Positions 5,421-61,958 of a stretch of DNA of 64,000 nucleotides are shown here, one piece after another; position 1 is the first letter of the stretch; the number at the start of each line of letters is the position of its first letter. The stretch is from Octopus vulgaris (taxonomy: Eukaryota). The DNA lies in contig OX597823.1 of the NCBI GenBank assembly GCA_951406725.2, positions 70,804,001-70,868,000 of the forward strand. The letters run 5' to 3'. The notes below the pieces were generated by a model. The model searched no databases, was not told the DNA's origin, and saw nothing but the letters and a program-made list of their open reading frames with translations. Made by a program: the position numbers and the translations under genes.

Positions 5421-5646
5421 AGTGTAAAAAATAGAAACATACAGACAGACAGGAAAAAGGAAAATGTCCCTTGCATTTGAAAACTATGGAAATATTTTTA
5501 AAAAGCATTTCATATAATTTTTTCCACAATTTAATTGTTTTTCATGTTTAAGTAATGAAATGTTCTTCATGATAAAATTATTTTAGCATTTTCTACCTTG
5601 TCATATTTTCCTTACACATATCAACTCGTGTCTTACTTTTCAACCT

Positions 5647-6045
<399 letters not shown>

Positions 6046-10027: not shown

Positions 10028-11318
10028 CAGGGTGGGGAAGCAAAATTTACAATGAACGTTAAGTTGTTTTTTCTCAGGAGGCACTAAGTCAATTGTTTTG
10101 AAACCTAGCATATATTGATGTCATACTCATACCTAACACTATAATTCTTACCTTTTCAGAAACTTTTGCCCATATGAGTAATTAGGAAAGCAAAAGTCAA
10201 AGAGTGTGTAATTTTCTGAATGCACTCGTCACACCAAAGGAGATTTCAAAAATAGTTGGAGTGTCAATAAATACTGTTTATAATGTAAAGAATAGAATGA
10301 CTATGAGCAAAGCTATTATGAGGAAGTCTGGAAGTTGAGGAATCAACAAAAAACGTACCAAAGCTTATATTAAAGCTCTCAAATCCAAAATCCTAAAGGA
10401 ACCAACCAAATCCATGAGAAAAATGGAAATTGAACTTGAGGTAGACAACAAGACCATTAGAAATGCTGTAAAATATGATTTGAGGTTAAAATCTTACACA
10501 AGAACACCAAAACACTTGTTGACAACAGCTATGAAGGAAAAGATATTGGAGAGGTGCAAGAAAATTATTACATGGTTCAAGAAAAAAGTCCTCCATTGTA
10601 ACGATCTTTTCAGATGAAAAGATCTTCACTGTCGATGCTGTTCTGAACAGCAGAAATGACAGATTTATCGCAAAATCTACAGCTGAGGTTTAGGGGACAT
10701 TCAAAACAAAAGATCCTGCTCAAGTTATGGCTTTTGGTGTTGTGGCTTCCAATGGAAAGAAAATGCCTATAAAATTCTACAAAGCTGATGAAAAGATTAA
10801 TGTTAATACTTACTACAAGACTCTGAGATACCAGGTATTGCAATGGCTTAAAGCAAACTACTCTGATGGTAATTATGTATGGACACAGGATGGTGCTCCA
10901 GCCCACACAGCTAGAAAAATACAAGATTTCTGCAAATCCAACTTTAGCAATTTTTTGGAATCTTGTTTATGGCCGCCTTCTAGCCCAGATCTAAACTTTC
11001 TGGATTATGCTATTTGGAGCATTTTAGAACATGCTACTAATAGAACATCACACAGTAATGTCGACTCTCTTAAAGATACTATTAAAGAAGAATGGGAGAA
11101 GTTGTCTCCCGAATATTTGAGGAACGCCTGTGCAAGTTTAAGGAAGCGTGTGAAGGCAGTTATCGAGAAAGAAGGAGGACACATAGAATAAAAATATTTT
11201 CTATTATGTAAATTGTCTTGTGGCAAATAAATTCTCATGACTTTCAATAAACAAATTGCTCATACACTGTCTTTCAATCCCTGCCTCAAAATATTGTAAA
11301 TTTTGCTTCCCCACCCTG
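10028..11318 (+). mobile_element. Full-length Tc1/mariner DD37D (maT) transposon
   Basis: Perfect 26-bp TIRs CAGGGTGGGGAAGCAAAATTTACAAT, TA target duplications, 1291 bp. Confidence 0.93.
10174..11191 (+). pseudogene. DD37D transposase with in-frame stops and a frameshift
   Basis: FSDEK ... QDGAPAH ... WPPSSPDLNFLDY, with 37 residues between the 2nd and 3rd Asp. Split over ORFs 10414-10617 and 10727-11191. Confidence 0.9.
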
Positions 11319-35054: not shown

Positions 35055-35092
35055 CTAGTGCATCCACAATTTAAAGATCTCATCGGCTGAAA

Positions 35093-35390
35093 ATGAAAGT
35101 TGTTCGGGCCCAGTTCAGTGTTGTCAGTATTTTTCTATTTCTTCTTGTGGGAAGTGGCAACAGTAATACGGATAGCGGTGGTCACACCAGTGGTGCAGGC
35201 CCTAGTAAACAATGTGGCAACTACTTTCTGTGTTACGTGAACAACTCTTTACAACATCTAAACAACCTGGATCCATCGTTTAATAGTTCACTCGCTTTTG
35301 TGAAGTTTCTTAAAGGCAACTGGGACTCTTACGACGAAGCCTGTGAATATATGCTTCACATGATTAACATCACCTCTGACGATGAACAAG
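35093..35390 (+). CDS. First coding exon of a secreted Cys-containing protein of unknown family (99 codons, phase-1 intron)
   Basis: Non-repetitive ORF MKVVRAQFSVVSIFLFLLVGSGNS... with a signal-peptide pattern, 3 Cys and sequons NNS, NSS and NIT. Consensus donor AAG|GTAAGT at 35391 and an upstream TATA box. Confidence 0.75.
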
Positions 35391-35593
35391 GTAAGTAAAA
35401 CACTTCCTGATATATACATGTATTGTTAACATTTAAGATTTTCGCTAGATAACGAGAAATGTCTTTCTAATTGTATATAAGAAAACGAAAATGTACCGAT
35501 ATGAGTTCAAAAACATTTGGAATTTGTGAAATTTGTGAGTGTATATTATTCGAGTGCGTGCTCATATATTTATGTATCTATATTTGTATATAA

Positions 35594-41564: not shown

Positions 41565-42617
41565 TTGAATAAAGTTAAAACATGGTTTGGTTTTCACGTT
41601 TTCTATTATGGTATTTTAACATTAAAAAATATTTTGTTCAGAAAAAATTCAATTAGCGCTTTCACACGTTCGTAATGATCATCAGATTTCAAAATGTATT
41701 TAACGGAACACAATACCATTTCTAGTAACATATAATCTGCATTACCAAAACATTTTTAAGATCATCAAAACAAAGTGAAAACTGATAAAACATTAACTAA
41801 TGAAACGCTTATCCTAAGCAAAAGGCAACCACATAACCTAAAGAAACTATTAACAACGGGAAAATTCAACATGAACAAACAGGATAAAACATTCACAGTC
41901 TCCAAGTGTAATGATACCAGATGTGGAACGTGTCATTACATGCATACGGGTAGATCCATTAGGACGAAAAAATGGACAAATTTTCACAAATGCAGATATG
42001 AACTGCAAAAGCAGAAATTTGATCTAGTGCATTAAATACCCGAATTCCGAGGAACTATATACAGGCGAGACAGGCAATGCATTATCGGAATGCTCAGGAG
42101 TTCACAGACAACACATCTGGAACACCAATCTTCGCCAAATTCCATTGAGCGAGCATATAGAAACATGTGGTTAGAAAATTTTTCCAGTTTTTCTTTTCCG
42201 TAAACTACATGACGCAAGTGGGGTTGGAAGAACGATAAAAAAAAAAAACGGTTTATTAAAACGTTCAAACCTGTTCTGAACAATAATATAACAACCAGTT
42301 AATGATGTGGATTAAAAAATATCTTTAGCATTATGAATAAAAAAACAAATTACAGAATATCGGTACACCCGGATGTTAAGGTGCATGCGGATTGGTCAAA
42401 ACTGTATTCCCAAAATTCAGCTTGTTGGAGCGTTGTAAGAGGTATTACAGTTGTCAAGAACTCAACTGTCAGTTAAATACATTTTGAAATCTGATTATTA
42501 CTACGAGAGTATGAAAGGTCTAATTGAACTTTATGAACATTACGAAATATTTTATTAATGTTAAAATACCATTATAAACAAACGTGAAAAACAGACCATG
42601 TTTTAACTATATTCAAC
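41565..42617 (+). mobile_element. Penelope-like (Neptune-type) element: GIY-YIG relic flanked by inverted ~140-bp pLTRs, each with an HHR motif
   Basis: SKRQPHNLKKLLT...KCNDTRCGTCHYM...NADMNCKSRNLI. Arms ~41565-41705 / 42470-42617. HHR motifs at 41651-41688 (-) and 42488-42525 (+). Confidence 0.8.
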
Positions 42618-42654: not shown

Positions 42655-43484
42655 ACGCACGTATCCATTTCTAAGTAAGTTTGTTCTTAATATTAATAAT
42701 GATGCGCACTCTTAACCTTTCTGTCCCCCTCCCTTTCTCAGCCTTCATTGTTTCTGGTTTCCTTTTCTTCTACCTTACTGTCTCTCCCTCCCTCTCTCTC
42801 ACTCTTCATTCTTTCTGGTTTCCACTACAACCATTCCTTTTTTTCTCTCCCTTTCTCTTACTCCTCCTCCTCTGTCCCGCCGCTGGTCAGCGACGAGAAA
42901 ACTATTGTCTTTCCGACCTCGCTTCCTTCGAGTGTAGACGGCTTTTCTGTGCCTCCTTCGCCGTTCTCAAAAAAAAAAGCGTTCGTAGTATTTTCTCTCG
43001 TTAGGCTTAACAGCCCTCCTTGTCTGTGTTACTGTTATCCTCCTTGTTCTGTCTTTTACTGTTTATATTTTGTACTGTCTTTACTGTCCTGTTTTTGTTA
43101 CCATTTTTACCCCTCCGCAAAAAATCTCAAATTTTATTTAATTTGCTTTTTGCGGGAAGGAATATTTCACCGAAGTCGTGTCTCGCCTTTACCTGCGAAC
43201 GCGGAGTAGATGAAACAGAGGCGACTGAAGAAGGGGAATTTTCCTTGTGTTCTATGTCCTGTACTCTATTTTTTCGTTGTTTAAGAAATATGTTCATTTC
43301 CTTGGTTTTGTGTTTGTTTTCGTTTCTTATTGTGTTCGACGTTTTTTTTGGTGTCCTGTACCCATATATGCATGTATATATACATGTAGATGTAGGTACG
43401 TACATATATGTGTGTATATATGCATATGTTTTATTTATTAATTTGTTTTTATACGACAGAACGCACGCATCCATTTCTAAGTAA

Positions 43485-43486
<2 letters not shown>
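42655..43486 (+). mobile_element. Penelope-like 3' UTR element bounded by a 26-bp direct repeat
   Basis: acgcacg(t/c)atccatttctaagtaagt at 42655-42680 and 43461-43486; pyrimidine-rich body; ends in (TA)n. Confidence 0.6.
43157..43246 (+). ncRNA. Candidate type II-topology hammerhead motif
   Basis: AAGGAATATTTCACC-GAAG-TCGTG-TC-TCGCCT-[hairpin]-AGGCGA-CTGAAGA-A-GGGGAATTTTCCTT. Confidence 0.5.
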
Positions 43487-54221: not shown

Positions 54222-54389
54222 ATACATATGAGGATACATACACCAACGCATACACATTCACATAAACACACACTCACATACACACGTATATACTCACACA
54301 CGCGCGCATTCGGAGTTACTGGAAATTGCCGCTAGGTTCTTATTTAATTTTTGCTCAATGTAAGGAAAATTTCAATTAACTAAGAATTG

Positions 54390-55095
54390 ATTAAGTCATC
54401 CAATAAATAACGCAATTTTTTAGTACTTCTTTTATTTTTCAAAATTGAGATAAACAAAGTTATTTTTGAATCTAAAATATGCTCTCCTTCATCTTCTACA
54501 ATACTCTTCATTCTATCTGGTAGACTTGCAAGGCTCCTCTCCCAAAATTCACTTGTCCTTGACAAAAAATACTGCTCCAGTACTGTTCTGACCTCGTCTA
54601 CAGAGATTATATTTTTCCGTCCAAAGGATTTTGAAGACTGAAATAATTGGTAATCAGATGGGCCAATGTCTGGCAAAAATGGTGGGTGGGGCACCGTTTT
54701 CCATTCAAACTGCTCCAGCAATTCGAATGTCATCATCACTGTATGTGGCCGAGCATTATACTGATGGAAGAATACCTTTCATCTTGAAACCAAACATAGT
54801 CGTTTTTCTTCAAGCGCTGACTTAAGCCGCTCAAGCTGCTCGCAGTTGATCTCCTTTGTTATCGTTTGGTTTGGGTTTAAAAGTTCAAAATGAACTAAAT
54901 ATTTCGTATCCCACCAAACAGATAACGGCACCTTACATGGATGACCTTCTTTAGCATGGGGTGCTGGTGTTTCTCCTTTCCTTACCCACTTCGGCGCTTG
55001 ACATTTTTATAGAGAACCCATTTCTCGTCACAGTCACTATTCGGTCCCAAAAAGTTCATTCGTGAGACGTGACAGTAAAGAGGAGCGCGCATTCA
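54390..55095 (-). pseudogene. mariner (DD34D-type) transposase relic, 5'-truncated
   Basis: WKTVPHPPFLPDIGPSDYQLF...LPDR...IVEDEGEHI. Confidence 0.8.
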
Positions 55096-60774: not shown

Positions 60775-61958
60775 TTAGGTTGGTAACTAAGTTCGCGCGT
60801 TTTTTAAATTTAAATCTTTTTAAAAGGTTTAATAAAAAATAACAACTAATTAATCAATAATGTATTCACCCTTGTTTACAACTTCTTCCCAACATTCAAC
60901 AAGATTTTCAACACCTCATTGGTAGAAATCACTCGATTTCGACTCGAAAGATTGATCCAAGGAAGGTCTCGATTCTGCATCAGTATTGAACGAAACTCCG
61001 CGCATGGCATTTGAAAGAGATCGAAAGAGAAGGAAATCCGTTGGTGCCAAATCAGGAGAGTACGGCGGGTGTGGCAGCACTTCCCAGCTATGCGTTTGAA
61101 TGGCTTCCTTGGCCATATTGGTGATATGAGGGCGGGCGTTGTCGTGCAGCAGAAGAACTCCATGCTGATGATTAGATCTTTTCTTTTGAATAGCCGTGTT
61201 GAGTCGTTCCATTTGTTGAGCATGGAGTTCCGCGCTGACCGTTCTAACAATTCGTAATGGGTAATCCCTTCCCAGTTCCACCATACGCATAACATCGTTT
61301 TACGCGGATGAAGATCTTGTTTCACACGCGGTGTCGCTTGTTTACCGGGGCTAAGCCATTCCTTACGCTGCTTCATATTGATGTACAGGCACCACATTTC
61401 GTCGCCAGTAACGATTGGGTAAATAAATCGTTGCTTGTGTCCATGAGTTGATTTTTGTTGTTGTCACTTAAAGCATGCGGAACCCATGCTCCATACTTCT
61501 GAACCTTTCCCATCGAGTGAAGATGCTTCTCTATAGAGTTTTGGAGCATTCCCTTTTCTCTGCCAGTTCCTTTGTCGTTTGACGAGAATTTTCGTGCAAA
61601 AGTTGGTTTAATCGCTCTTCATCGAAATCAACTAGAGGGCCAGAACGAGGTGCGTCTTTGAGGTCAAACTTTCCATTTTTGAACTTCAACTATGGCATCT
61701 TCTCCATACACAGCACAAATGTCGCAAGCAGCTTTTACGGCCTTAGAACCTTGATTAAAAGCAAAAAGTAGAAGGTGTTGAGAATGCTGGTTTTTCCTAA
61801 CTTAACATTCCATTTTAATGATCTGAAAATAAACAAAAATTAACTAAAATTAACTAGAAAAAAAGAAAATGGATTCTGAAATGATTCAAAAATAGAATTC
61901 TCGAAAAAAATAGATTCCAAAATTTAAAAAAGTGTCGGGAACTTAGTTGCCAACCTAA
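60775..61958 (-). mobile_element. Full-length but decayed mariner (DD34D) transposon
   Basis: TIRs TTAGGTTGGTAACTAAGTTC / GAACTTAGTTGCCAACCTAA. Motifs GAWVPHAL, IVTGDE, HDNARPH and YSPDLAPTD with a 34-residue D-D spacing; frameshifted. Confidence 0.9.

Follow-up and report, generated by a model that had tools for sequence, protein, structure and literature searches.

A split-core hammerhead ribozyme is predicted in a damaged copy of an abundant non-coding Penelope-like element of the octopus genome

The stretch of DNA analyzed here, referred to as the window, comprises 64,000 nucleotides of Octopus vulgaris contig OX597823.1. On its plus strand, at positions 42655 to 43486 and inside a TA-rich microsatellite, lies a non-coding Penelope-like element made of an 806-nt unit and a 26-nt repeat of its own start. 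This terminal repeat, or tail (43461 to 43486, plus strand), matches the element's first 26 nt and runs into (TA)n. No ORF belonging to the 806-nt unit was found. An intron-like segment (42675 to 42741, plus strand), with a GTAAGT donor, a branch-like CTTAAC, a pyrimidine tract and a CAG, begins within the tail repeat, and many copies of the element stop at the donor or just past it. The donor is kept in subfamilies A, B and C (see below) and occurs in altered form in F, and the acceptor was seen in A and F; no spliced joint was listed in the contigs examined. Upstream of the element, at about 41820 to 42264 of the plus strand, a Neptune-like element has left its GIY-YIG endonuclease end, which is decayed and contains stops and a frameshift; we considered and rejected it as a part of our element, since it lies 400 nt away and no link was seen. 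Elsewhere in the window, mariner/Tc1-type transposase remnants are found at 10694 to 11191, 54380 to 54778 and 60876 to 61463 (translations judged by eye), and an open frame at 35075 to 35398 (plus strand), with a signal-peptide-like start and several cysteines, is possibly a host-gene exon.

The element in the window is a damaged copy of a small mobile element with thousands of copies in the genome. A search of 2.8 Gb in 227 contigs gave 2370 first-look candidates (40 of them scored); a 17-letter core pattern had 1503 exact matches genome-wide, compared to 1 in the control, and one 17-letter piece of the motif described below had at least 4275, compared to 13. The copies are 5′ truncated, often with an inverted 5′ piece, and show two end points about 35 to 45 nt apart; partial tandems occur, with units spaced 784 to 815 nt. 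In the available text of PMC8557442, 5′ truncation, inverted 5′ pieces, partial tandems and a 30- to 40-nt tail are described as known traits of Penelope-like elements, and our family has all four. The truncated 5′ ends, the inverted 5′ pieces and the tandems establish the plus strand as the sense strand. Among the contigs of four sequence runs, presumably of RNA, the family was found in runs labelled as three organisms, including, at 80% likeness or more, runs X19 and X20, labelled as two other organisms; these contigs yield neither transcript ends nor strand. In four loci (L282, L304, L331 and L333), the inverted 5′ pieces change strand at or near stem I of the motif, as if the new DNA had folded back on the self-complementary ribozyme strands.

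Within the element we recognize a hammerhead-type motif. Its RNA is predicted to be open between A9 and G10.1, with two outer helices closing it and the 10.x strand of stem II supplied by the 5′ flank. Our reading as a whole is that this non-coding Penelope-like element, of which the window has a damaged copy, is numerous in the genome and carries a predicted non-circular hammerhead with its opening between A9 and G10.1, and that intact copies likely cut themselves after position 17; we give it a probability of about 0.8. In the predicted fold taken by itself we have high confidence. From 5′ to 3′ on the plus strand, the order supported by covariation begins with the 5′ strand of outer helix Pa (43110 to 43114, pairing with 43232 to 43236) and hairpin Pb (43115 to 43155), which ends directly 5′ of G10.1. 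The 10.x strand of stem II follows (43156 to 43160, G10.1 being 43156), then the 5′ strand of helix P4 (43163 to 43169, with one mismatch here at 43164), which replaces helix "I" of type-SGC ribozymes, the internal-loop strand CCGAAG between P4 and stem III (43170 to 43175), the 16.x strand of stem III with C17 (43176 to 43182), the predicted cut after 43182, and the 1.x strand of stem I (43183 to 43188). A short linker leads to the 11.x strand of stem II (43192 to 43196; C11.1 is 43196, and a private G43195 breaks a pair), the catalytic G12-A13-A14-A15.1 (43197 to 43199, one A too few in this copy) and the 15.x strand of stem III (43200 to 43204). The remainder consists of the internal-loop strand AGTAGA (43205 to 43210), facing 43170 to 43175 and kept in five of the six subfamilies, the 3′ strand of P4 (43211 to 43217), the 2.x strand of stem I (43219 to 43224), the core C3-U4-G5-A6-N7-G8-A9 (43225 to 43231) and, right after A9, the 3′ strand of Pa (43232 to 43236).

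The window copy itself has an inner GAAA that is short of one A and a mismatch in stem II, and it fails the multi-helix descriptor introduced below. We think that it is probably dead. An earlier suggestion that it may be dead thus holds in outcome but not in cause: the damage is the missing inner A and the mismatches in stem II and P4, and not a G at position 15.1. An Rfam search of the window returned no match at the gathering score, and for eight loci searched with E up to 1, no ribozyme was among the matches listed (150 of 203), all of them microsatellite-driven microRNA or snoRNA matches. CTGANGA alone occurs near chance in the window (30 observed, 21.5 expected).

The case for the motif comes from the family. 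Subfamilies A to F were obtained by searching with diverged copies, and 179 of 227 motif matches were kept (A, 35; B, 29; C, 32; D, 29; E, 31; F, 23), the others being 40 whose alignment covered under 95 columns and 8 subfamily D copies fetched with a deletion-bearing query. Many D copies (L141 to L170) have differing short deletions inside the ribozyme, from stem II to the GAAA, in a sample biased by a query that itself bears a deletion. The six majority rows are 55 to 82% identical over the motif, and at all 13 fixed core positions the expected base is the majority base in every subfamily; the core of subfamily F is intact by construction, because it was fetched with a pattern demanding the core. 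Among the 179 copies, C3, U4, G5, A6, G8 and A9 are each kept in 172 to 176, G12 in 169, A13 in 170, A14 in 179, A15.1 in 177 and U16.1 in 175, and position 17 is cleavable (C, U or A) in 177. The complete hammerhead core (C3 U4 G5 A6 G8 A9, G12 A13 A14, and A15.1-U16.1) is present in the six subfamilies, but not in the window copy, and stems I, II and III flank it, with G10.1-C11.1. The block order, cleavage site, then GAAA, then CUGANGA, is the reverse of that in types I to III and equals that of type SGC.

Stems I and III are both well supported. All 30 majority pairs of stem I are Watson-Crick over the six subfamilies, and all 30 of stem III are paired; 12 and 4, respectively, of the 720 permutations of subfamilies match this, which is not a probability, since the subfamilies are related. 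With 10 indel-free rows per subfamily drawn from the 179 copies (60 rows), stems I and III were 93.4% and 95.4% paired, and 4/6 and 4/5 of their pairs, respectively, had changed on both sides. Stem III has 5 to 6 bp and is not palindromic.

Stem II, formed with the 5′ flank, is the pairing on which the split core depends. Here too, 30 of 30 majority pairs are Watson-Crick (12 of the 720 permutations match, again not a probability among related subfamilies), and a swap between G-C and C-G is seen even within subfamily D. In a 40-row alignment of subfamilies A to E (F left out), this stem was 95.6% paired, with three of its five pairs changed on both sides; slid controls gave 30 to 49% for the whole structure.

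The helices that surround this core recur as well. In Pa, the G-run after A9 pairs with a pyrimidine run further upstream, with 4 to 7 bp in each of the six majority rows; in a count in which subfamily D was mis-registered, 592 of 714 cells were Watson-Crick. Pb fills the space from Pa to G10.1 with 4 to 9 uninterrupted bp in every majority row, and A, C/F and E have different sequences there. P4 connects the strand that follows 10.x with the one that precedes 2.x, by 5 to 8 Watson-Crick pairs in the six subfamilies; 1094 of 1140 cells are paired, and 8 of 720 permutations match (not a probability, the subfamilies being related). Because shuffles of the linker match the length of P4 in 0 to 26% of trials per subfamily, its support lies in recurrence and covariation. 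The sequence of the loop between P4 and stem III is shared by all subfamilies except C. Its CCGAAG strand may be half of a kink-turn or a loop E; the kink-turn consensus (a 3-nt bulge, then G.A and A.G pairs) fits E and F, has one deviation in A, B and D, and differs from C.

A descriptor of all the helices except P4 passed the six majority rows, as well as a Naiad-type row (see below), and none of 300 shuffles per row; 66 of the 179 single copies passed, 5 to 21 per subfamily. Nested folding of six natural copies did not yield the active fold, as is expected from the presence of several pseudoknots, although Pb did form; the subfamily A copy gave a long rod instead. Such competing folds may slow the active form. 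We also considered an outer helix, "P0", between the 5′ purine tract and the 3′ pyrimidine tract, corresponding to the outer part of this rod. It can be drawn in the six rows but uses the stem II strand and is at most an alternative, inactive fold.

Does the motif cut? The 5′ ends of copies bear on this. In a sample consisting of the first 100 matches to a pattern anchored 3′ of the predicted cut, 28 copies begin at +1 to +14 (2.0% per nt), while 5 of the other 72 begin at −29 to 0 (about 0.2% per nt), and from 0 to −119 each bin has a rate of 0.14 to 0.38% per nt. Four of the 28 ends are inversion junctions. Genome-wide, (TA)n junctions on the minus strand were found in 383 of 2142 matches for an anchor over the cut, 13 of 271 for one 5′ of it and 111 of 870 for one further 3′; these counts point the same way, but the three anchors cover different subfamily sets, so that the rates are rough. 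We read this step in 5′ ends as a genomic footprint of ribozyme action. Ribozyme cleavage is, judging from conservation and these ends, probable, and intact copies likely cut themselves after position 17 in the animal. The ends peak at +7/+8, not at +1 (3 of 28 are at +1 to +3, and 21 of 28 at +1 to +9); therefore, either the ends lose a small number of bases or some other cause contributes. Furthermore, 72 of the 100 copies read across the predicted cut, and uncut or re-joined templates are therefore needed.

We imagine the following sequence of events. Tandem transcripts would be cut into monomers of about 800 nt; because four helices (Pa, II, P4 and III) span the cut, the two ends of a monomer could come together again as a ribozyme and be ligated into a circle. 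A reverse transcriptase of the Penelope type, acting in trans and probably from a Naiad element, would initiate at an internal position close to the tail. If the template had been cut, synthesis would run off just past the cut, producing the clustered 5′ ends; if it was uncut or had been re-ligated, synthesis would continue, giving longer, more-than-unit copies. We lean slightly toward a circular RNA intermediate and, with a little more confidence, toward Naiads as the mobilizer. Internal initiation near the tail has been shown for another Penelope-like element, according to the available text of PMC11167929, in which a Poseidon element with a classic hammerhead is also reported to insert in vitro with cleavage dispensable and no RNA ends at the site. 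In three dimensions, the RNA would have an ordinary hammerhead core, with stems I, II and P4 meeting in a second three-way junction that holds stem I beside stem II. The loop between P4 and stem III would make the bend, and Pa and Pb would occupy the site of the single extra base found between A9 and G10.1 in other Penelope hammerheads.

The alternative that survives best accepts the fold but supposes that the monomer does not cut itself, the motif acting only between tandem units or as a scaffold, without catalysis, for the protein of the element; the clustered 5′ ends would then reflect reverse transcriptase stalling or a protein nuclease. The peak at +7/+8 and the competition from nested folds are in keeping with this, as are the tandem units 784 to 815 nt apart and the report (PMC4209133, as far as its available text goes) that minimal Penelope hammerheads cleave poorly and do so as dimers. 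However, every catalytic base and a cleavable position 17 are kept while the helices drift, and the nonpalindromic stem III of 5 to 6 bp is unlike that of dimer-type motifs. As for stalling, at the 21 of 28 ends that lie at +1 to +9, all of the 3′ partner strands would already have been copied, leaving no predicted helix to stall at. We consider this alternative improbable.

Less likely still is a plain type-SGC hammerhead, in which stem II would use the G-run right after CUGANGA, with one extra A. Three to four such pairs are possible, and they include G10.1-C11.1 in each subfamily (22 of 24 majority pairs; 88% of cells). The comparison with the 5′ flank decides against it: 301 of 887 cells are Watson-Crick for the G-run and 843 of 895 for the 5′ flank, and among 100 consecutive matches on one contig (C1), 57 of them long enough, a perfect 5-bp stem II was formed with the 5′ flank in 46 of 57 and with the G-run in none. 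Only 10 of 30 majority pairs are Watson-Crick for the G-run, 576 of 720 permutations are equally good, and the G-run has a separate partner, in Pa. We therefore rejected the G-run stem II on the cell counts and the consecutive-match sample. In the split-core reading, CUGAnGA is not directly followed by the 10.x strand, and what is an uninterrupted block C in type SGC is broken; the helix that joins the outer sides of stems I and II in type SGC is present, as P4.

The original prediction for this locus was a type II hammerhead, with GAAG at 43172 to 43175 as a variant or decayed GAAA, GTC at 43180 to 43182, stem I formed by TCGCCT (43183 to 43188) and AGGCGA (43219 to 43224), CTGAAGA at 43225 to 43231 and a long open stem II between 43157 to 43171 and 43232 to 43246. 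All of these letters are where it placed them. Family anatomy and covariation uphold a hammerhead-type motif, a permuted order and a Penelope-like element, stem I is real and covaries, and the cut that was proposed after C43182 agrees with the one predicted from the whole family. The type II assignment itself, to which we give next to no credence, did not survive. Its long stem II is the nested minimum-energy fold of the window copy (z, −2.0; 4 of 200 shuffles were as good), as it is in subfamily A, but the pairs beside the core are not kept: at positions 2 to 4, only 8 of 18 majority pairs are standard. A C precedes the GAA in all six majority rows, but position 15.1 is G or U in all six, and the 15.2-16.2 pair fails in three. 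GAAG is the family state and not decay (32 of the 34 closest copies, with GAAA in none), and a GAAA at 43172 to 43175 was found in 9 of the 179 copies across subfamilies; because the family lacks it, the prediction is refuted by the test set for it in advance. Using patterns of similar strictness, GAAA occurs genome-wide at the upstream position in 5 distinct loci and at the inner position in 291. A hairpin proposed within stem I needs two changes private to the window copy, which lost one A of the inner GAAA and gained G43195, and is absent from the aligned relatives. The family has neither the order GAAA, site, CUGANGA nor stems I and III as closed hairpins; its order along the RNA is non-circular, with the core strand split between A9 and G10.1, and a type II reading leaves the invariant inner GAAA and three covarying helices without explanation. 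A type I parse, with a local hairpin after CTGAAGA, is ruled out, since no GAAA follows the hairpin.

How does the split-core wiring compare to known hammerheads? Type-SGC RNAs (HRIMA-1 and variants), as presented in the available text of Eckert et al. 2023 (PMC10085705), cleave in vitro, are treated as having CUGAnGA and the 10.x strand inseparable, as "block C," and are said not to have been found in genomes of known organisms. Judging from that text, they share with our motif the reversed cyclic order of site, GAAA and CUGANGA blocks, a short linker between stems I and II, and a helix between the strands that lie 5′ of 2.x and 3′ of 10.x (SGC "I," here P4). They differ in that here CUGANGA and 10.x are at opposite ends, joined by Pa and Pb; relative to the SGC wiring, the split-core RNA is circularly permuted, its opening falling between A9 and G10.1. 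Minimal type I hammerheads in Penelope elements (Cervera and De la Pena 2014, PMC4209133) also have a terminal repeat, sense-strand location, G10.1-C11.1, an insertion between 9 and 10.1 and a proposed circular intermediate, but have a tiny palindromic stem III and one extra base, whereas here the order is non-circular, stem III has 5 to 6 bp and two helices are inserted. Type II hammerheads, in the portion of Perreault et al. 2011 (PMC3088659) available to us, likewise have a stem II that is not closed by a loop; they are circularly permuted, with the distal end of stem II open and stems I and III closed as hairpins, while here the RNA opens at the core end of stem II and has the reversed order. 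Non-LTR retrozymes (Li, Clavereau, Pollet 2026, 10.64898/2026.07.22.740005; Cervera and De la Pena 2020, PMC7229834) are similarly Penelope-derived, non-coding tandem units with a hammerhead, but are defined by a type I hammerhead in each unit, which ours do not have, and their descriptors would miss the split-core motif. A literature search, which covered few subscription papers, found no description of the split-core wiring, and the available portions of PMC10162972, PMC13725137, PMC6155905 and PMC11300833 contain no such variant.

Ordinary hammerheads are present in this genome as well. The 3′ end of one Penelope-like locus (L068:2709-4967 and 5607-5647, in G000:C4) carries, by eye, a type I minimal hammerhead with a U3-A8 core variant and a palindromic stem III; classic and split-core hammerheads therefore coexist.

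Naiads, a group of Penelope-like elements, may share this wiring. The available text of Craig et al. 2021 (PMC8557442) reports them as lacking a canonical hammerhead and flags eight as "half cores," Naiad_Ovul (HHR_half_core) among them. By eye, the 3′ ends of Naiad_Obim and Naiad_Ovul in the published supplement fit our set of helices although their sequence is unrelated, and the same applies to three coral-type Naiad 3′ ends printed there beside Naiad_Aacu and Naiad_Anas. Exact copies of a 20-letter piece from the octopus Naiad motif number 416 in the genome (control, 0). The majority row of 30 Naiad-type copies passes the descriptor, while only 2 of these 30 old single copies do, and two Naiad-type copies at one locus (L267 and L268) begin at the predicted cut.

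As far as the available Naiad descriptions go, Naiads resemble subfamilies A to F in their (TA)n targets, partial tandems, inverted 5′ pieces, 30- to 40-bp tail and, by eye, ribozyme wiring; this wiring, the (TA)n targeting and a CATCC..TTT 3′ end all point to Naiads. The Naiad ORF has an N-terminal GIY-YIG, a CxC motif and a reverse transcriptase, whereas subfamilies A to F carry no ORF, and no coding parent of theirs was seen among the fetched loci. A GIY-YIG frame beside one copy (L036) was considered as a parent and rejected, because it is part of a different, young family that has a 3′ end of its own. At the same locus (L036:1250-1240, minus strand), a short shared TCTTT connects the tail of the copy to a truncated piece of endonuclease from this other Penelope-like family; this junction is a template switch or a nested insertion.

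The published scheme recognizes six hammerhead orders because CUGAnGA and the stem II strand were taken as inseparable, and the split-core RNA breaks this rule with strong covariation. In its broadest form, to which we give even odds, our proposal is that this is a seventh hammerhead wiring, non-circular and with its opening inside the catalytic strand, between A9 and G10.1, which is caged by outer helices so that it both cuts and re-joins; that it is the missing ribozyme of the Naiads, active in animals from corals to octopuses; and that these elements are copied from RNA circles of their own making. This offers a possible reason why Naiads seemed to be without hammerheads and would imply that standard descriptors overlook a large class of ribozymes in animal genomes. 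The role of hammerheads in Penelope-like elements, including the circular-template model, thereby becomes testable with a 130-nt RNA.
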